Source of the DNA: an uncultured bacterium | GTDB lineage: Bacteria > Nitrospirota > Thermodesulfovibrionia > Thermodesulfovibrionales > CALJEL01 | Direction: 5' to 3' | NCBI GenBank assembly: GCA_938074335.1 | Contig: CALJEL010000013.1 | Coordinates: 888-64,887, forward strand | Length of the DNA: 64,000 bases | Shown: one piece after another, positions 381-55,335 of the stretch | Numbering within the stretch: position 1 is the stretch's first letter | How the letters are laid out: each line of letters starts with the position of its first letter | Notes under the pieces: generated by a model | The model's input: the letters and a program-made list of their open reading frames with translations, nothing else | Told to the model about the DNA's origin: nothing | The model's database searches: none | Translations under genes and position numbers: made by a program

Positions 381-840
381 CCGTAATCTGCCATTAGAAA
401 TTTATAAAAAGCCTTTAATAAAACTGGCAGTCTGCCCATATTTCGGGGTTCACGGGGTGAAGCTTGTCTTCAGTCCGCGCTCTAAAGGCAATACCAGCAC
501 CCCAGAAAATCTGACGATTTTCTGGGGACCCCGCCTGCGACACCTTAGTAGAGCAGTAGAGCAACAGAGCAGCAGCGCAGCAGTTAAATAATAATATAAA
601 AAATTCCTTAATAAAAACTACTGCTCTACTGCTCTGCTGGTCTGCTGCTCTATTAATAAAAACTGCTGGTCTACTGCTCTGCTGCTCTATCAATAAAAAC
701 TACTGCACTGTTGCTCTGCTGGTCTATCTGTCGCACCGTAGCACTACTTTTGTAAGCCACAGACAAGAATGTCTGTGCTACTTGCTCTACTTCTCTACTG
801 CTCTACTGCTCTGCTGCTCTATCAATTAAGGCAATCAAAT
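381..840. repeat. Repeat locus A, a composite hairpin/octamer-array element. It contains an end motif, the 40-nt module 1, hairpin 2 and the long hairpin, whose right arm is tandemly triplicated.
   Basis: gtaatctgccat end motif at 384-395. Module 1 cggggttcacggggtgaagcttgtcttcagtccgcgctct at 444-483. Perfect 11-bp hairpin ccccagaaaat/ctgacg/attttctgggg at 500-527. TAGAGCAG-type octamer arm, AT-rich loop, then three tandem units starting ttaataaaaac / ttaataaaaac / tcaataaaaac at about 608, 653 and 690. The same modules recur at 14.1, 27.5 and 55.2 kb. Confidence 0.9.
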
Positions 841-4507: not shown

Positions 4508-6172
4508 ATGTCATTAAGGAGTAACAGGATTAAAAAAGGACTTGAAAGGGTTCCTCACCGGGCCCTCCTTTATGCCACAGGCATTCCAAGGTCTGAACTC
4601 AACAAGCCATTTATTGGAGTTGCTACAAGTTTTACTGATATCATACCAGGGCATATTGGTATGAGGGATCTTGAAAGATTCATTGAAAAGGGTATTCATA
4701 CAGGAGGTGGTTATCCTTTCTTCTTTGGAATCCCAGGGATATGTGATGGTATAGCCATGGGACACAGGGGAATGCATTACAGCCTTCCATCCAGAGAACT
4801 CATCGCTGATATGGTGGAGACCATAGCAGAGGCGCACCAGTTTGATGGACTTGTGCTTCTAACCAATTGTGATAAGATAACCCCTGGTATGCTCATGGCA
4901 GCAGCAAGGATCAATATTCCATCAATTATTGTGACAGCAGGACCAATGCATTCAGGCCTACTTAAGGGTAAAAGGCTATCCCTTGTTAATGACACCTTTG
5001 AGGCAATTGGAAAGTTTAAAAAGGGTCTTATATCAGAAGCCGAGCTTGAGCAGCTTGAGCTCTGTGCCTGCCCTGGACCTGGCTCATGTCAAGGGATGTA
5101 CACAGCAAACACAATGGCCTGTGTGACAGAGGCACTGGGAATGAGTCTGCCAACCTGTGCCACAAGCCTTGCCATTACATCCCATAAAAGAAGGATTGCC
5201 TTTGAAAGCGGAAGGAAGATTGTGGAGCTTGTAAGGAAAAATATCACACCAAGAAAGATATTAACAAGAAAGGCCTTTGAGAATGCCATAAGGGTTGATA
5301 TGGCCCTTGGAGGTTCAACAAATACGGTGCTTCATATACCGGCAATAGCCCATGAGGCAGGAGTTAAGCTTCCCCTTGAGGTATTTGATGAACTGAGCAG
5401 GACAACCCCTCACATAGCAAACATGCTTCCAGGAGGGGAGCACTTCCTTGAAGACCTTGATGCAGCTGGAGGTATACCTGCGGTGCTAAAGAGACTCGGT
5501 AAACTTCTTCACAATACTATGACCCTTAGTGGATTTACCACCTACCAGATAGCCCAGAGGGCAGAGATATATAATGAAGATGTGATAAGACCCCTTGAAA
5601 AGGCCTATCATAAAGAAGGTGGTATTGCTATCCTCAGGGGAAATCTTGCACCAGGTGGTGCTGTGGTCAAACAATCTGCAGTAAATCCAAAGATGATGGT
5701 CTTTGAGGGGACCGCAAAAGTCTATAATTCAGAAGAAGAAGGCATGAAGGCAATCCTTAATGGTGAGATAAAGCCAGGTGATGTGGTGGTGATAAGATAC
5801 GAGGGTCCAAAAGGTGGTCCTGGTATGAGGGAGATGCTCTCTCCTACAGCCACCATAGCTGGTATGGGACTCAGTGACTCTGTAGCCCTGATTACAGATG
5901 GAAGGTTCTCAGGTGGGACAAGAGGACCCTGCATAGGCCATATATCTCCAGAGGCAATGGAGGGTGGACCGGTTGCAATAGTTCAGAACGGAGACAGGAT
6001 AAAGATAGATATCCCGAAAAGAAGGCTCGACCTTCTCATACCTGAAGAAGAAATCAAAAAAAGACTTTCAAAATGGAGACCTCCAAGACCAAAGATAACA
6101 AAGGGCTGGCTTGCAAGATATGCTAAACTGGTTACCTCTGCCGGCACGGGTGCTGTGATGAAGGAGGACTGA
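4508..6172 (+). CDS. ilvD: Dihydroxy-acid dehydratase
   Basis: RALLYATG...[10 protein letters not shown]...TNCDKITPG...TDGRFSGGT along the full length. Confidence 0.95.
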
Positions 6173-6186
6173 AGAAAGACTTGAGT

Positions 6187-7803
6187 TTAAAATAGTCCCA
6201 TTTGTTTTTCTTTCAGGGGTCTATCTGGTATAAAGATGTCCTCTATGCATTGGTTATTGATTTCTGAAAGAAAAAGAGAGGCCTTTTGAGCCCCTGTCTT
6301 TCCATATAACGATCTCTTTCTTGCATGAATCAGAAACAATTCCTCCTTTGCCCTTGTCATGGCCACATAGAGGAGCCTTCTTTCCTCCTCAATATCTTCT
6401 GCTTCAAGAGGTATAATACCCTGTTCAAGTCCTGCTATAAAGACTACCCTGAACTCAAGACCCTTTGACATATGCATGGTAAGAAGCCTCACACCCTCTG
6501 CCTCAAGTCTGTCCTCTTCAGGACCTGTGAGTTTAAGCCAGGTTATAAGGTCATCTGATGATGAGGGCATATAATTATCAAACAGTGAATTCAAAGCCCT
6601 GTATCTCTCTCTGAGCTCCTGAAGCAGTAATTCCCAGGGTTTATCCTTATTTTCCTGAATATAACTTAATATCTCTTTCAGGGTCTCTGAAAAGACCCTT
6701 CCCATTACATAACAGGGTATACCTGTCTTTTTTAATTCAGTCTCAAGGGCAAAAACCTGATTGTTTGTCCTTAAAAGCACAGCAAAGTCAGAAAGACTGT
6801 AACCACCCCTTTCAGCCTGAAGACCCCTCATAAGACTGTAATGACTCATCCCTCCAAGCCTCTTTTCAATCTCATGAGCTATAAACTCGATCTCTGCCCT
6901 GTCATCAGGCACAGATACAAGCCTTAAAGGAGGGCCTTCTTTTTTGATACTTACAATCTTTTTCGGTATCCTTTCCTTATTTTTTTCAATGAGGCTCTCA
7001 GAGGCCTTTACTATAAAGGCCTGGGACCTGTAGTTTTTATCAAGGACAATCCTTATTGCCTGAGGATATTCCTTTTCAAAGTCCAGAAAGTTCTTAACAT
7101 TTGCTCCCCTGAAGCTATAGATTGACTGGTCAGGATCACCTACAGCAAATATCCTTTCAATAGAAAATGCCTTAAGCAACCTGTATTGAAGGGGATTTAT
7201 ATCCTGATATTCGTCCACTATAATATATTTGATGGTCTTTCTGTATCTGTTTTGATTTGATGGATCTTTAAGAAGATCTATTGCCCTGATTATAATGTCA
7301 TCAAAATCAAGGGCCCTTTTTTTCTGAAGAGCTTCCTGATAATCCTCCATTATCTTTTTTATCCTGTCATCAGGCTCATCAAGAAGATTCTTTATCCTTG
7401 ATATCCTTTCAATGATAGAGGATGGCCTTCCTGAACCGGAGACCCCTTTTATAACCTCAAGCTGTTCCTCTCTGCTAAGGATAGAAAATTCATCTCCCCA
7501 TGTATCTTTTATAATCCTTAAACCAAAAAGATGGAATGTCCCTGCAAATAATCCCTTCAGATCTCCATGAAAGATCCTTATCCTTTCTTTAAGCTCTGAG
7601 GCAGCCCTGTTAGTAAAGGTAATTGCCACTATTTCCTCAGGCCTTGCTCCCTTTGCTAAAAGATAGGCTATCCTTCTTACAATGGTAAGGGTCTTCCCCG
7701 TGCCAGGACCGGCAACAACAAGCACAGGGCAATCAGGTGCTCTGACAGCAAGCCTCTGGGATTCATTCAGGCCTTCAAGGATTCTTTCTATATTCATGGG
7801 CAA
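6187..7803 (-). CDS. Compact UvrD/Rep/PcrA-family SF1 helicase (538 aa)
   Basis: LNESQ..AV, Walker A AGPGTGKT, IIVDEYQDINPLQY, VGDPDQSIYSFRGA, KNYRS, MHMSKGLEF, LLYVAMTRAKEEL. All SF1 motifs are present but the protein is about 180 aa shorter than classical UvrD. Confidence 0.8.
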   Translation of the reverse strand: MPMNIERILEGLNESQRLAVRAPDCPVLVVAGPGTGKTLTIVRRIAYLLAKGARPEEIVAITFTNRAASELKERIRIFHGDLKGLFAGTFHLFGLRIIKDTWGDEFSILSREEQLEVIKGVSGSGRPSSIIERISRIKNLLDEPDDRIKKIMEDYQEALQKKRALDFDDIIIRAIDLLKDPSNQNRYRKTIKYIIVDEYQDINPLQYRLLKAFSIERIFAVGDPDQSIYSFRGANVKNFLDFEKEYPQAIRIVLDKNYRSQAFIVKASESLIEKNKERIPKKIVSIKKEGPPLRLVSVPDDRAEIEFIAHEIEKRLGGMSHYSLMRGLQAERGGYSLSDFAVLLRTNNQVFALETELKKTGIPCYVMGRVFSETLKEILSYIQENKDKPWELLLQELRERYRALNSLFDNYMPSSSDDLITWLKLTGPEEDRLEAEGVRLLTMHMSKGLEFRVVFIAGLEQGIIPLEAEDIEEERRLLYVAMTRAKEELFLIHARKRSLYGKTGAQKASLFLSEINNQCIEDIFIPDRPLKEKQMGLF

Positions 7804-14082: not shown

Positions 14083-14458
14083 AATCTGCCGAGAAATGCA
14101 TTTTCATCGGGGTTCACGGGGTGAAGCTTGTCTTCACTCCGTGCTCTAATGGCGGGGTATGCCTCAAAGCCTTCTTAGACCAGCAGAGCAACAGTGCAGC
14201 AGAGCAGTAGTTTTTATTGATAGATCAGCAGACCAGCAGAGCAGTAGAGCAGTGGTTTTTATTAAGGAATTTTTTTAATTATTATTTAACTGCTGCGCTG
14301 CTGCTCTGTTGCTCTACTGCTCTGTTATTGCCTGTTGCTCTACTGCTCTACTGCTCTATTAAGGTGTCGCGAGCGGGGTCCCCAGAAAATCTGACGATTT
14401 TCTGGGGTGCTGATATTGCCCTTTCGGCGTTCCCCGCCATTCCTATGGCAGATTACAG
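14083..14458. repeat. Repeat locus B, the most complete copy of the composite element. It is about 375 bp and MITE-like, with terminal inverted repeats.
   Basis: The left end is aatctgccgagaaatgcatttt...aatggcggggtatgcc. The reverse complement of the right end is aatctgccataggaatggcggggaacgcc. Inside are module 1 (14108-14147), octamer-array hairpins and hairpin 2 (14380-14407). Confidence 0.8.
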
Positions 14459-14930: not shown

Positions 14931-16067
14931 CTATTTTCCGAATGGACATACAGGGTATCTGCATTCCTTGCAATTAAGACATAGTCCTCCGTGACCGAGT
15001 TCTGCAAGCTCATATCTTCCAATCTTTTCTCCTGCAAGCACCCTTGGAAGGATTAAGTCAAATATAGTTATCTTATGATACATCCCGCAGGCAGGGATGC
15101 CTAAAACAGGAATGGGTGAAGGGGTGAATGGGTGAATGGGTGAAGTGGCTGTTGCACTGTCGTTCTGTCGCACTGTCGCACTAATATATGCCACCAGAAA
15201 CATAGCACCTGGCAGCACTGCCGAGCCATATGTGATATCAGTTGCCCCGAGCTTTCTGATGGCAAATCTTGTAACATCATCAGGGTCAACGGACATGCCA
15301 CCTGTGGTTATCAGGAGATCTGCACCGGCCTCAAGGAGTTCCCTGAGTCTTGCCTCAATAAACTCCACATCATCAGGTGCATAATAAATTCCCACTATCT
15401 CTCCCTGATAGGACTCTATCTTCTTTGTGATAATAGGTGCAAAAACATCCTTTATCCTTCCATAATAGACCTCATTGCCTGTGATGACCACTCCAGCCTT
15501 AGGCCTTCTTAATTCCTTAATCTCAATTACCCCTGTGCAACCATTAACACCTTGCACCTCTTCCGCAATTCTTACAGCCTTCTGAATAACTTCCTTTTTA
15601 ACTATAAGAGGGATTGCCCGTGTCCCTGCTACTACCTGTCCTTTTCTTACTACAGTATTGCTATGAAAAGTAGCACACATCACATCACCAAGCATATTAA
15701 ATCTTAATAGTGCCTCTTTGTGTATCTTTAACAATCCATCTCTTCCTGCTCTTATGTTTATCCTTCCTTCCTTTGGTTCACCCTCCATCTCCACACCTTC
15801 ACCCATCAGCGCCCGTGCAAGGCAATAGGCTGCCTCATCCTCGTGCATCTCATCAGGTCCTATACTCAATACATAAAGATTTTCCTTCCCAAGTCTTCTA
15901 AGGTGATCAATGTCCTCCTGCCTGATTATATGTCCCTTTCTGAAGGCCCTTCCTTTAAACTCTCCCTGTCTTATCTCTGTAATGTCATGGGCAAGGACAG
16001 TGCCAACCGCCTCTGTAATAGGAACTGTCTTAAGACCTTTAATCTCTTTTTCATTTACCTCACACAT
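14931..16067 (-). CDS. Molybdopterin-binding (MoCF-biosynthesis/MoeA-like) domain protein with a C-terminal Cys motif. It carries a 24-codon repeat-derived insertion.
   Basis: ITGNEVYYGRI.D...LLITTGGMSVDPDDVT...LPGAMFLVAY...GIPACGMYHK.TIFDL...GGLCLNCKECRYPVCPFGK. Confidence 0.7.
   Translation of the reverse strand: MCEVNEKEIKGLKTVPITEAVGTVLAHDITEIRQGEFKGRAFRKGHIIRQEDIDHLRRLGKENLYVLSIGPDEMHEDEAAYCLARALMGEGVEMEGEPKEGRINIRAGRDGLLKIHKEALLRFNMLGDVMCATFHSNTVVRKGQVVAGTRAIPLIVKKEVIQKAVRIAEEVQGVNGCTGVIEIKELRRPKAGVVITGNEVYYGRIKDVFAPIITKKIESYQGEIVGIYYAPDDVEFIEARLRELLEAGADLLITTGGMSVDPDDVTRFAIRKLGATDITYGSAVLPGAMFLVAYISATVRQNDSATATSPIHPFTPSPIPVLGIPACGMYHKITIFDLILPRVLAGEKIGRYELAELGHGGLCLNCKECRYPVCPFGK
15111..15182. 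repeat. Nine tandem octamers (72 nt) embedded in frame in the molybdopterin-binding gene
   Basis: Plus strand: aatgggtg aaggggtg aatgggtg aatgggtg aagtggct gttgcact gtcgttct gtcgcact gtcgcact. It encodes SATVRQNDSATATSPIHPFTPSPI. The same GTCGCACT and TTCACC motifs occur intergenically at 27.41, 41.40 and 49.02 kb. Confidence 0.9.
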
Positions 16068-27410: not shown

Positions 27411-27433
27411 CCACTGTGTCGCACTGTCGCACT
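27411..27433. repeat. Short GTCGCACT-type octamer array
   Basis: ccactgtg tcgcactg tcgcact lies just upstream of the binding-protein start codon. Confidence 0.7.
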
Positions 27434-27486: not shown

Positions 27487-27695
27487 TAAACTGCCGATAG
27501 GAATGGCGGGAGATGCCGAAAAGGCAATACCAGTACCCCAGAAAATCGTCAGATTCTCTGGGGACCCCGCCTGCGACACCTTAATAGAGCAGTAGAGCAA
27601 CAGAGCAGCAGCGCAGCAGTTAAATAATAATATAAAAAATTCCTTAATAAAAACTACTGCTCTACTGGTCTGCTGGTCTGCTGCTCTATTAAGGA
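27487..27695. repeat. Repeat locus C, a half element (one terminal motif, hairpin 2 and the long octamer hairpin)
   Basis: aaactgccgataggaatggcggg end motif. Hairpin 27536-27563 (loop cgtcag). 37-nt arms at 27583-27619 and 27654-27690 (30 of 37 positions complementary by my count) around a 34-nt AT-only loop. Confidence 0.9.
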
Positions 27696-27722
27696 TAGAA
27701 ACCTATCATACAATCTGAAAGC

Positions 27723-41392: not shown

Positions 41393-41446
41393 CGACACCT
41401 TAGTAGTGCGAAAAGTGCTACCGCCTATCCCTTCACCTCTTCACCT
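41393..41446. repeat. Relic of the octamer-repeat family in the pnp-downstream spacer
   Basis: cgacaccttagtagtgcgaaaagtgctaccgcctatcccttcacctcttcacct shares the junction cgacacctta with loci A and C. A GTGCGA-type block is followed by a TTCACC-type block, in the same order as in the 15111-15182 insert. Confidence 0.6.
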
Positions 41447-41695
41447 ATAATATTCCTGCACCTACGATGTGACGGTCTACGGGTGTGAGGCAAGCCGCAC
41501 AATTTAAAATATATTTCTGAATGGCAGTTACGCATTAATAACATCTTGATTTATCTATCTTTTTTACAGTATTTTCGAGACCTGCCAAATTAAAAGACAA
41601 ATCTGTTAAACTATTACGAATCATTAAAGGGATTTCTAACAGTATGGGTCCCCTGAATTTAATTCATTTTAAGGAAATTTTAAAAGGAGCCCTCA

Positions 41696-48955: not shown

Positions 48956-48960
48956 TGCCA

Positions 48961-49036
48961 ATTAGAGCGACCGTGCAATTGTGCTACAGCACTACAGATT
49001 AGAGTGACCGTGCAATTGTCGCTCTGTCGCACTGTC
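48961..49036. repeat. Two direct 23-nt copies plus a GACAGNGC-type octamer run. It spans the ispE/pabB convergent gap and the pabB 3' end.
   Basis: attagagcgaccgtgcaattgtg (48961-48983) and attagagtgaccgtgcaattgtc (48998-49020), followed by gctctgtcgcactgtcg. Confidence 0.8.
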
Positions 49037-50071
49037 GTGAAATGCCTTCATCTTCAGATAAAGCTCTGATAGTTCCTTCTCTGGCACAGAATCCCAGACT
49101 ATTCCACAACCTGCATAATAGGACAATCTATTACCACTGCCTATGGCTGTCCTTATAAGGACAGAAAGGACAAAATCTCCATCTGACCTTAAAAGCCCTG
49201 CACAGCCACAGTAATAGCTCCTTGGATGGGGCTCAAGACCCTCTATTATCTCCACTGCCTTCCGCTTGGGTGCACCTGTAACAGAGGCCGGTGGAAAGGT
49301 TGCCTTGAGTATATCCACAATCTCTTTATCTGTAATTGCCTCAACTGTTGAATGCATCTGAAAAAGGGTCTGGTATCCTGTAATCTTGAAGAGTTCTGTT
49401 ACCCTCACACTGCCATTCCTTGCAATCCTGCCAAGGTCATTTCTCATCATATCTGTAATCATGAGGTTCTCAGCCTTATCCTTTTCGCTGTTTATAAGTG
49501 CCTGGGCTGTGGTAGCTGTACCTTTTATGGGTTTGCTCCTTATAATGCTGCCCTCCTTTTGAAGGAATAACTCCATGGAGCCCGAGATAATATAAAAATC
49601 ACCTGCATTGAAACAGAATGAATAAGGCACAGGCTGGCTATGGTGAAATCTATAAAATAAGGACTCAGGGAAGCCATCAAGCTCAAAATCAAATCTATTT
49701 GTCAGATTCACCTGATAGATTATTCCCTCAGCTATGAGTTCCTTTATCTTCAGTACAGAGTTTTTATAATCATCATCATTGAGAGAGGCTCCCTTTAAAG
49801 AAAGCCTGCAGGGGTAAATCTCCGGGGATGTTTCATTAAAATCATTCACTTCAATGAGGGCAACAGGAGGAAGATCTGATTTTTTTATGTTAAGATCAAG
49901 TAATCCTCCCGAGAGGTCATAGGAGAGTATGATAAAATAATCTTTATTAAAAAAGGAAAATCTTCCGAGGTCATCAAGATTATTAAAAAATCTCAGACTG
50001 CCTGTGTCTGCCCTGTAAAAAAGGCCTTTATCTCTCTTAAGCCAGGTCCCGTTGAGTAGCAAATCTTTCAT
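48992..50071 (-). CDS. pabB: Chorismate-binding enzyme, short aminodeoxychorismate synthase component I type
   Basis: SGSMELF...PIKGT...MITDMMRNDLGR...PPASVTGAPK..A...I..LE...R..YCG. It lies directly upstream of a class-IV aminotransferase-fold gene. Confidence 0.7.
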   Translation of the reverse strand: MKDLLLNGTWLKRDKGLFYRADTGSLRFFNNLDDLGRFSFFNKDYFIILSYDLSGGLLDLNIKKSDLPPVALIEVNDFNETSPEIYPCRLSLKGASLNDDDYKNSVLKIKELIAEGIIYQVNLTNRFDFELDGFPESLFYRFHHSQPVPYSFCFNAGDFYIISGSMELFLQKEGSIIRSKPIKGTATTAQALINSEKDKAENLMITDMMRNDLGRIARNGSVRVTELFKITGYQTLFQMHSTVEAITDKEIVDILKATFPPASVTGAPKRKAVEIIEGLEPHPRSYYCGCAGLLRSDGDFVLSVLIRTAIGSGNRLSYYAGCGIVWDSVPEKELSELYLKMKAFHDSATERQLHGHSNL

Positions 50072-55054: not shown

Positions 55055-55195
55055 CTTTAACTATCCTCCCTGAAACAATCTTATATCTAATATCTAAGCC
55101 TTTAACCAGGTTAAGATTATCCAGCAATCTTTGCTCATTTATAATTTTTATATTTTACTCTAAAGGAGGAATAAATTAAAACTGATTAGCAGTTA

Positions 55196-55335
55196 ATAAC
55201 TGAGCAGTAGAGCAACAGAGCAACAGTTAAATAATAATATAAAAAATTCCTTAATAAAAACTACTGCTCTACTGCTCTGCTGGTCTAAGAAGACTTTGAG
55301 GCATACCCCGCCATTAAAAATGCATTTCTATCACC
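55196..55335. repeat. Repeat locus D, the complementary half element (long octamer hairpin plus the other terminal motif, without module 1)
   Basis: gagcagtagagcaacagagcaacagttaaataataatataaaaaattccttaataaaaactactgctctactgctctgctggtctaagaagactttgaggcataccccgccattaaaaatgcatttc. This equals the reverse complement of the left part of locus B, minus the 40-nt module 1. Confidence 0.9.

Follow-up and report, generated by a model that had tools for sequence, protein, structure and literature searches.

The stretch of DNA analysed here, called the window in what follows, covers 64,000 nucleotides (nt) from an uncultured member of the Thermodesulfovibrionales (contig CALJEL010000013.1, positions 888 to 64,887). 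On its minus strand it carries a gene for a MoeA/gephyrin-E-like molybdopterin-binding protein that contains an in-frame insert of nine tandem octamers. We show that this array is one allele of a series in which each of two sub-arrays has 1, 4 or 7 units, and that its units belong to a repeat family dispersed in the same genome. The insert is probably a tolerated passenger repeat, translated in a β-turn of the MoeA-like protein, changing in length by three-unit slippage and functionally neutral. Repeats of this kind are already known. What is new here is the presence of octamer arrays in Nitrospirota, the frame-constrained allelic series and the order-wide pair of insertion hot spots in one enzyme.

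An octamer array in a MoeA-like gene

The coordinates of all features are collected in Table 1. Read on the minus strand from 15182 to 15111, the insert is AGTGCGAC AGTGCGAC AGAACGAC AGTGCAAC AGCCACTT CACCCATT CACCCATT CACCCCTT CACCCATT, that is, nine octamers or 72 nt. It comprises four purine-rich units (A), one junction octamer and four pyrimidine-rich units (B). The 24 codons are entered in the host protein through the peptide ...VAYISATVR and left through ...SPIPVLGIPACGMYHK. At a lag of 8 nt the insert matches itself at 47 of 64 positions, whereas composition-preserving shuffles gave a mean of 17.6 (standard deviation 3.4) and a maximum of 31; the periodicity is far beyond chance. Tandem Repeats Finder (TRF) reported two period-8 arrays in the gene, at 15110-15144 (4.4 copies) and 15149-15182 (4.2 copies). 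The nine in-frame octamers of the original prediction are confirmed. When periods of 5-12 were scanned, strong arrays were present in the window at period 8 only, in 5 regions against 0 in shuffles. No further in-gene arrays were found in the window at relaxed thresholds. The unit is 8 nt long, and its translation therefore cycles through all three frames. This gives peptide periods of eight residues, SATVRQxD from the A array and TSPIHPFx from the B array.

A hairpin in the insert was ruled out by RNA folding. The 72-nt insert has an energy of -5.7 kcal/mol on the mRNA strand against a shuffle mean of -6.7 (z = +0.45), and the opposite strand gave z = +0.21. The A and B units are not complementary, and the insert is not palindromic. 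No inverted termini and no evident target-site duplication of the in-gene copy were found. The boundaries read ...TATATT/AGTGCGAC...CACCCATT/CCTGTT, and the common ATT belongs to the unit. A scan of the whole window against Rfam gave no family match.

The domain of the host open reading frame (ORF) is MoCF_biosynth (PF00994, E = 2e-20) according to Pfam, with which 11 of the ~55 ORFs of the window were scanned. The best sequence matches in the PDB are the MoeA entries 1uz5 and 1wu2, and Foldseek matched the protein to GephE, Cnx1E and MoeA. Synteny places the gene in a conserved cluster of FmdE, HTH_1 (ModE-like) and MoCF genes that adjoins a molybdopterin oxidoreductase, the neighbours being assigned by Pfam. 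The best protein matches come from metagenome-assembled genomes of Thermodesulfovibrionales/Nitrospirota, at 66-82% identity. The gene is syntenic, intact and highly conserved on both sides of the insert, and nothing in it points to a pseudogene. In the AlphaFold model (mean predicted local distance difference test, pLDDT, of 75), the insert is flanked by strands at residues 289-295 and 319-323, and pLDDT falls below 50 over residues 300-315. The insert is thus predicted to be a disordered 24-residue surface loop between two strands, in keeping with the surface loop that had been expected from sequence. The alignment with MoeA reaches the strand immediately before the insert site.

A genome scan for orthologues of the host gene returned 80 loci. 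We measured the loop as the residues between AY and PxLG, which are four in insert-free alleles and in the outgroup turn. About 40 Desulfobacterota orthologues have a two-residue turn at the site (LPGAMFLVAY[LI]-G-[DE]-[VI]P[LI]LG[VIL]PAC), and a few deep Nitrospirota are also short there (GD in L007, HN in L018). Among the 120 closest Nitrospirota orthologues, the site is expanded in 114, with a median of 26 residues and a maximum of 72 between AY and PxLG. All 120 alleles hold the frame into the invariant C-terminus. Because the Desulfobacterota orthologues have the two-residue turn only, the 24 residues are specific to Nitrospirota/Thermodesulfovibrionales, as had been proposed, and unrelated lineages are without a homologous segment. 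The two flanks, LPGAMFLVAYI and PVLGIPACG, had been read as contiguous conserved sequence, and the outgroup does run straight across, as LVAYLG[D/E]VPLLGVPAC. Judged from these alignments, the array is inserted in frame into conserved sequence that is otherwise contiguous, and the insertion is lineage-specific. Orthologues with 72-82% identity over the full length of the protein share the array insert together with its junction; it was therefore inherited and is not a recent event of this genome.

The loop is expanded in 114 of the 120 orthologues (median 26 residues), which could also mean that a long flexible loop, perhaps an arm for docking or regulation, is required by the enzyme of this lineage and that the repeats are its raw material. 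The inserts are mostly hydrophilic or proline-rich, and the coding strand of the alleles examined starts at this site with the purine-rich array, so that the more hydrophobic complement is not translated; both would suit such a selected feature. We nevertheless find it improbable. There is no sequence conservation across alleles beyond the repeat units, and loop lengths vary between no expansion at all and ~68 residues more than the basic turn. Insert-free alleles (LSPI, ISSI, ITELI) occur among insert-bearing relatives, one such pair being 99.4% identical outside the hot spots described below. The outgroups function with a two-residue turn, and the model gives the loop no structure.

Allelic series and exchange at two hot spots

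In seven close alleles the DNA can be divided into (A)n, the junction and (B)m. The window allele has n = 4 and m = 4 (72 nt), and so do L082 and L085 (72 nt each). The other four are L083 (n = 4, m = 7; 96 nt), L084 (n = 4, m = 1; 48 nt), L086 (n = 1, m = 4; 48 nt) and L087 (n = 7, m = 1; 72 nt). The junction is AGCCACTT in five of the seven and AGCCGCTT or ATCCGCTT in the remainder. In these close orthologues the A and B sub-arrays thus have 1, 4 or 7 units each, and the totals are 6, 9 or 12 octamers. This agrees with the expectation that the unit count must be a multiple of three. The count of exactly nine holds for the window allele; nine is one allele of the series, not a special number. 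Two further loci, L088 and L089, have AGACCAGC units at the site instead (69 and 21 nt), and this unit is also present inside the intergenic arrays of the window. Across the close alleles the insert measures 21-96 nt. Among 16 SAT...SPI alleles compared as protein sequences, 13 have lengths of 16, 24 or 32 residues.

The essential C-terminal 60 residues stay in frame only if a change amounts to three units (24 nt), which accounts for surviving alleles with 1, 4 or 7 units per sub-array. By our own translation of the units, the combinations (3,2) or (2,3) are also in frame and free of stop codons, yet none was seen among the alleles. Their absence fits single events within one array. The allelic series as a whole fits slippage or unequal exchange in which three-unit changes alone survive. 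When JGI metagenome contigs were scanned with a DNA pattern that would match A-junction-B alleles whatever their length, out-of-frame unit numbers included, a single locus was returned, probably L082 again. A second protein search with the 108-residue C-terminal segment yielded no new SAT/SPI alleles; most of its matches were gene fragments or had other types of insert.

The insert site of the window allele is one of two hot spots in this protein, and we call it hot spot 2; hot spot 1 is a second loop at query residues ~169-178. Across the Thermodesulfovibrionales, 114 of the 120 orthologues have translated arrays at hot spot 2, built of octamers or heptamers of many types. The octamers found there in relatives include AGAGCAGA (RAEEQKSR), ACTTCxGA (TSELPNFR), GGAAACGG/TCTCCGAG, AGCGGGAA and AGTATCAA/CTCTGACC. 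Heptamer periods are exemplified by the peptides NSELRTP, NSKLNTQ and PIPNPQS, and by AGAGCAT as DNA. Hot spot 1 is equally variable in relatives, with heptamer arrays (CAGAAGT, CAGCAGT, TTCAGCC) or GC-rich hairpins. No array was found at hot spot 1 of the window allele; an inverted repeat at 15534-15563, GTGCAA-N11-TTGCAC, may be a remnant. The proteins P0083 and P0072 carry the same A+B composite at both loops, and the hot-spot-2 allele of P0127 is a true in-frame palindrome, ERAAEQQSSR...TALLRYCATEL.

Even where a pair of proteins shares 98-99% identity outside the hot spots, the inserts can be unrelated or absent. Such pairs, ~99% identical, suggested rapid local insertion and excision at the strain level, which was ruled out by the pattern of single-nucleotide polymorphisms (SNPs). 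In a DNA alignment of three near-identical genes there were 0 differences over the first 500 nt, and the SNPs clustered around the differing hot spot. Density reached 18-23 SNPs per 100 nt in two places, next to the alternative inserts of hot spot 1 and upstream of hot spot 2; immediately downstream of the insert at hot spot 2 it was 12 per 100 nt. These clusters are recombination tracts, and the alleles are therefore exchanged by homologous recombination rather than by local transposition, insertion or excision. The “empty” allele LVAYLSPIPILG keeps one B unit, TCACCCATT, and is therefore a contraction footprint and not a virgin site.

Among the database entries of the MoeA-like family there are many fragments; some start directly after hot spot 1, others within or after hot spot 2 (e.g. 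P0196, P0216 and P0236). In P0225 the N-terminus of the upstream helix-turn-helix (HTH) gene is fused directly to PILGIPACG. One contig, L023, ends inside the heptamer array at hot spot 2 (6738-6764), an example of dispersed arrays breaking assemblies. The fragment and fused entries are probably contig breaks or chimeras at repeats, with frameshift or deletion alleles as the alternative.

These fragments bear on the possibility that the tract acts at the DNA or RNA level. It could then serve a global or nucleoid-associated regulator as an array of binding sites, or be a contingency (phase-variation) tract in which the gain or loss of 1-2 octamers would shift the frame and thereby switch off the Cys-rich C-terminus. 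A unit whose length is not a multiple of three, placed inside an ORF, speaks for a function of this type, and so do the many entries that start just after hot spot 1 or 2, although contig breaks at dispersed repeats, as in L023, explain these equally well. Arrays of about four units are preferred in and between genes, as in the Geobacter H4/class 1 elements and the heptamers of Nostoc and Xanthomonas, and the units resemble Geobacter GTTGCTYN, TCTCCGTS and MTYCTGA, a resemblance between strings taken from figure legends. We regard a role at the DNA or RNA level as unlikely. Four imperfect units per sub-array are a poor substrate for slippage compared with known contingency loci. All full-length alleles are in frame, with length steps of three units only. 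The unit sequences at the site also vary widely between alleles, which is hard to fit to one specific binding protein.

Short dispersed repeats can mis-assemble, as the fusion in P0225 illustrates, and an assembly artefact or a pseudogene would be another explanation of the insert itself. We give it almost no chance. The identical 378-residue protein was assembled independently in a Logan contig and in an NCBI/ENA record, and homologous inserts are present in NCBI, ENA, JGI and Logan assemblies. The ORF is intact, with conserved sequence to either side of the insert.

The dispersed repeat family

An A-type 16-mer, searched with up to 3 mismatches, has 6 matches in the window against 0.06 expected. 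Three lie inside the insert, and the others are at 730-745, 27418-27433 and 49018-49033. The dominant family of the window, AGAGCAGC/GCTGCTCT, has 34 matches against 0.5 expected. Its inverted arrays occupy four window loci, namely 542-830, 14170-14360, 55197-55290 and the representative copy in Table 1. An element of this type folds as RNA with -52.9 kcal/mol (z = -10.4). The array at 14177-14208 mixes AGACCAGC, AGAGCAAC and AGTGCAGC units, and the A-type array at 730-745 directly adjoins the element at 443-840; together these two arrays link the AGAGCAGC family to the A type. The units of the insert are members of a repeat family that is scattered through the same genome. In TRF, most intergenic period-8 arrays of the window have 4.2-5.4 copies, and relatives have 7- or 8-nt units in ~3-9 copies per array.

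The original prediction had placed further copies of both octamer types between genes. The A-type copy at 27.42 kb is indeed intergenic and exact. The copy at 49.03 kb exists but is not purely intergenic: the array region 48992-49040 encodes the last ~15 residues of a PabB-like ORF. The Pfam domain of this ORF is complete at residue 340, and the repeat therefore supplies a C-terminal extension and the stop codon. This copy reads AGTGCGAC AGAGCGAC AATTGCAC GGTCACTC and is 80% identical to the in-gene copy over 35 nt. A block, ATTAGAG[CT]GACCGTGCAATTG, occurs at 48956-49012 in two copies 37 nt apart, adjoining the A-type array between two convergent genes. TTCACC runs had been noted at 41.43 kb. 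A copy is present there, but 41431-41446 is merely CTTCACCT twice, and arrays of the B type (CACCCATT) are nearly absent elsewhere in the window. The same order of A and then B at 41.40 kb was recovered, as a short composite.

Composite intergenic elements at 443-840, 14100-14450, 27497-27700 and 55190-55320 consist of shuffled modules, with copies up to 95% identical. The modules are inverted AGAGCAGC-type arrays with their loop, a 28-nt hairpin (CCCCAGAAAATCTGACGATTTTCTGGGG) and flanking blocks of 30-47 nt. The composite intergenic element had no Rfam match and, by blastn, no match among plasmids and phages.

With strong hairpins and inverted arrays (z = -10.4) at several loci and 95% identity, these intergenic relatives invite the reading that a discrete palindromic mobile element was transposed into the gene in this genome. 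It would resemble a Rickettsia palindromic element (RPE) or a miniature inverted-repeat transposable element (MITE). RPEs insert in frame at high frequency, true in-frame palindromes such as that of P0127 exist among the alleles at the insert site, and the A+B composite at both hot spots of P0083 and P0072 suggests a portable unit. The in-gene copy, however, shows no propensity to form a hairpin (z = +0.45); it lacks terminal inverted repeats, and a target-site duplication is not evident. The insert and its junction are inherited, as argued above from their presence in 72-82% identical orthologues, and the presence/absence differences between strains ride on recombination tracts. No transposase linked to the insert was found in the window, of which 11 of the ~55 ORFs were scanned with Pfam. 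We consider such an event highly improbable.

In L085, the chorismate synthase gene has two in-frame (AGTCAGA)n heptamer arrays, KSQKSEVRSQKSD and YQKTEDRSQKSD, and an SLT/TPR gene has one in-frame (AGTCAGG)n array. The MoeA-like gene is therefore not the only one with in-frame arrays. In L083 a hairpin at 4645-4790, (CAGAGCAG)n ... (CTACTGCT)n, lies inside the called N-terminus of a downstream TupA-like periplasmic binding protein. Its pyrimidine arm translates to LLLYCSTALFMLLCC, which is like the hydrophobic core of a signal peptide. Period-8 arrays are ~8-fold denser in Nitrospirota than in Desulfobacterota loci, a biased figure in that every Nitrospirota locus includes the host gene. Three Desulfobacterota loci (L031 3571-3726, L058 9770-9943 and L072 3950-4116) show inverted pairs of ~4 octamers with species-specific units. 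Their architecture is that of the intergenic elements of the window and of the Geobacter class 1 sites.

Table 1. Positions of the insert, its parts and related arrays (window coordinates, except the last row)
Feature	Position	Strand	Remarks
Host gene, MoeA/gephyrin-E-like molybdopterin-binding protein	14931..16067	-	Intact ORF; 378 aa with C-terminal Cys-rich tail
Insert, nine octamers	15111..15182	-	Encodes residues 296-319, SATVRQNDSATATSPIHPFTPSPI
A sub-array, four purine-rich units (AGTGCGAC, AGTGCGAC, AGAACGAC, AGTGCAAC)	15151..15182	-	
Junction octamer AGCCACTT	15143..15150	-	Kept among alleles; variant in the 49.0-kb copy
B sub-array, four pyrimidine-rich units (CACCCATT, CACCCATT, CACCCCTT, CACCCATT)	15111..15142	-	
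Left flank, β-strand LPGAMFLVAYI	15183..15215	-	Residues 285-295
Right flank, PVLGIPACG	15084..15110	-	Residues 320-328
Intergenic A-type array	27417..27433	-	AGTGCGAC twice, exact
Inverted arrays (representative)	27579..27694	+	~4 octamers of the AGAGCAGC type per array, enclosing a conserved AT-rich loop of 34 nt
Short intergenic composite, A then B	41403..41450	+	AGTGCGAA AAGTGCTA CCGCCTAT CCCTTCAC CTCTTCAC CT
A-type array and junction	49017..49037	-	C-terminal tail HDSATERQLHGHSNL* of PabB-like ORF 48992..50071(-)
L085 in-frame arrays (L085 coordinates)	1778-1810, 2117-2152, 700-732		Chorismate synthase (two), SLT/TPR (one)

Comparison with known repeats and significance

The insert has the traits of dispersed 7-8-nt tandem repeats: head-to-tail units, about four per array, and many inter- and intragenic copies. 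The closest precedents are the four-tandem hepta/octanucleotide elements of Geobacter metallireducens and the short tandemly repeated repetitive (STRR) sequences of cyanobacteria. The latter are heptanucleotides, CCCCAGT among their units, reportedly described by Mazel and co-workers in 1990. For G. metallireducens, multicopy “four tandem repeat” elements were described that include paired inverted sites of four tandem octanucleotides GTTGCTYN, arrays of TCTCCGTS and MTYCTGA, and a GGACCGG family (Aklujkar et al. 2009, PMC2700814). With the arrays here these elements share ~4-5 units of 7-8 nt, a dispersed inter- and intragenic distribution, sometimes twice in one gene, and an arrangement in inverted pairs whose spacing varies, as in the AGAGCAGC/GCTGCTCT elements of the window. 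The Geobacter consensus units look related to GTTGCTCT here, TCTCCGAG in L003 and CTCCTGA/CTTCTGA in L085 when the strings of the figure legends are compared unaligned. In the same comparison of consensus strings, AGTGCGAC and CACCCATT match none of the described cyanobacterial or Geobacter families. The Geobacter elements belong to a different phylum and are read there as regulator-binding sites or regulatory RNAs, with no analysis of reading frame, allelic series or the protein sites occupied.

The G-rich heptamer repeats of Nostoc and Xanthomonas prefer four units (Rehm et al. 2015, PMC4692102). Like the arrays here, these repeats and the STRRs are dispersed and tandem, with 7-nt units that show a strong preference for about four per array and vary in number between loci, and some Nostoc/Xanthomonas copies overlap the ends of ORFs (PMC4692102). 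They differ in being heptamers of other phyla that are reported to be under-represented in coding regions. The Nostoc/Xanthomonas repeats are explained through G-quadruplexes, which the units here cannot form. No in-frame loop insertions were analysed for the STRR and Nostoc/Xanthomonas repeats.

Phase-variable contingency loci, such as the tetranucleotide and heptanucleotide tracts of Haemophilus, also have an intragenic unit whose length is not a multiple of three, and slippage changes the unit number. The tracts here are short and imperfect, and only in-frame three-unit variants were observed, in protein databases that under-sample frameshifts; the host is a housekeeping cofactor enzyme of free-living anaerobes. 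Repetitive extragenic palindromes (REP), their REPIN forms and MITEs, among them the Correia and ERIC elements, form a further group of small repeats. To our knowledge no transposase is linked to octamer arrays. Like that group, the family here has small, multicopy, hairpin-forming intergenic relatives, and intragenic copies are occasionally translated (PMC10969869). Neither terminal inverted repeats nor a target-site duplication is defined for the in-gene copy, and the arms here are built of tandem octamers. The in-gene copy thus lacks the inverted termini of MITEs and REPINs, whereas its intergenic relatives do have inverted arrays. RPEs are palindromes of ~150 bp that encode a conserved peptide and lie in frame in conserved genes, compatible with the fold (PMC10969869). 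The likeness to RPEs seen in the original prediction stands insofar as a dispersed non-autonomous repeat is inserted in frame at a tolerant site of a conserved metabolic gene, translated and compatible with the fold. It does not extend to the form of the element. The insert, at 72 nt, is half the size of an RPE, it is tandem and not palindromic, has no fold signal (z = +0.45) and is modular in length in 24-nt steps. Its peptide varies widely between orthologues, with no family-specific conserved peptide.

We favour a history in which an array element would have entered the tight β-hairpin turn of the MoeA-like Mo/W-cofactor protein early in the Thermodesulfovibrionales. The insert would be a coding-region copy of the lineage's short tandem-repeat elements, in each of which about four units of 7-8 nt are arrayed. 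Its translation product would be a disordered surface loop of 24 residues, tolerated by the fold and presumably without function as a peptide. Tract length would change by slipped-strand mispairing or unequal exchange within one sub-array, and changes other than three units (24 nt) would be lost with the essential C-terminal 60 residues out of frame. The arrays at the site would later have been remodelled by point mutation or replaced by other unit families through ectopic or allelic recombination, with occasional contraction to a one-unit footprint, and would pass between strains on homologous-recombination tracts. The first array may have arisen by transposition, templated repair or de novo slippage.

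Several observations weigh against this history. Frame-shifted alleles are under-represented in protein databases, so that sampling accounts for part of the 1/4/7 rule. Common descent links many of the alleles, and the independent length changes are therefore few (at least four). A long insert persists in 95% of the orthologues and arrays recur at two loops, which could mean selection on the loop or on the DNA tract. No target-site duplication is evident that would mark how the first array came in.

A bolder view would be that Thermodesulfovibrionales, and perhaps Desulfobacterota such as Geobacter, have a hitherto unrecognised system of portable 7-8-nt tandem-array cassettes. A mechanism specific to arrays, such as templated repair or a dedicated recombinase or transposase, would copy the cassettes from locus to locus; they would prefer β-turn loops of conserved enzymes and would be translated in three frames in turn. 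The in-gene tracts would then be recombination hot spots or frameshift switches and not inert passengers. We hold this to be distinctly unlikely.

The passenger repeat that we favour provides a case of short tandem repeats, selfish or neutral, with a unit that is not a multiple of three, living inside essential genes. The 1/4/7 series is a natural experiment on slippage filtered by the reading frame, and two loops of one MoeA-like protein serve as order-wide dumping grounds for many array families. For annotation, spurious “lineage-specific domains” may be called at such arrays, and contigs break at array sites. For protein engineering, both loops are permissive insertion sites. The finding is also relevant to hepta/octanucleotide arrays, which were first noted in Geobacter and cyanobacteria and lack an explanation.

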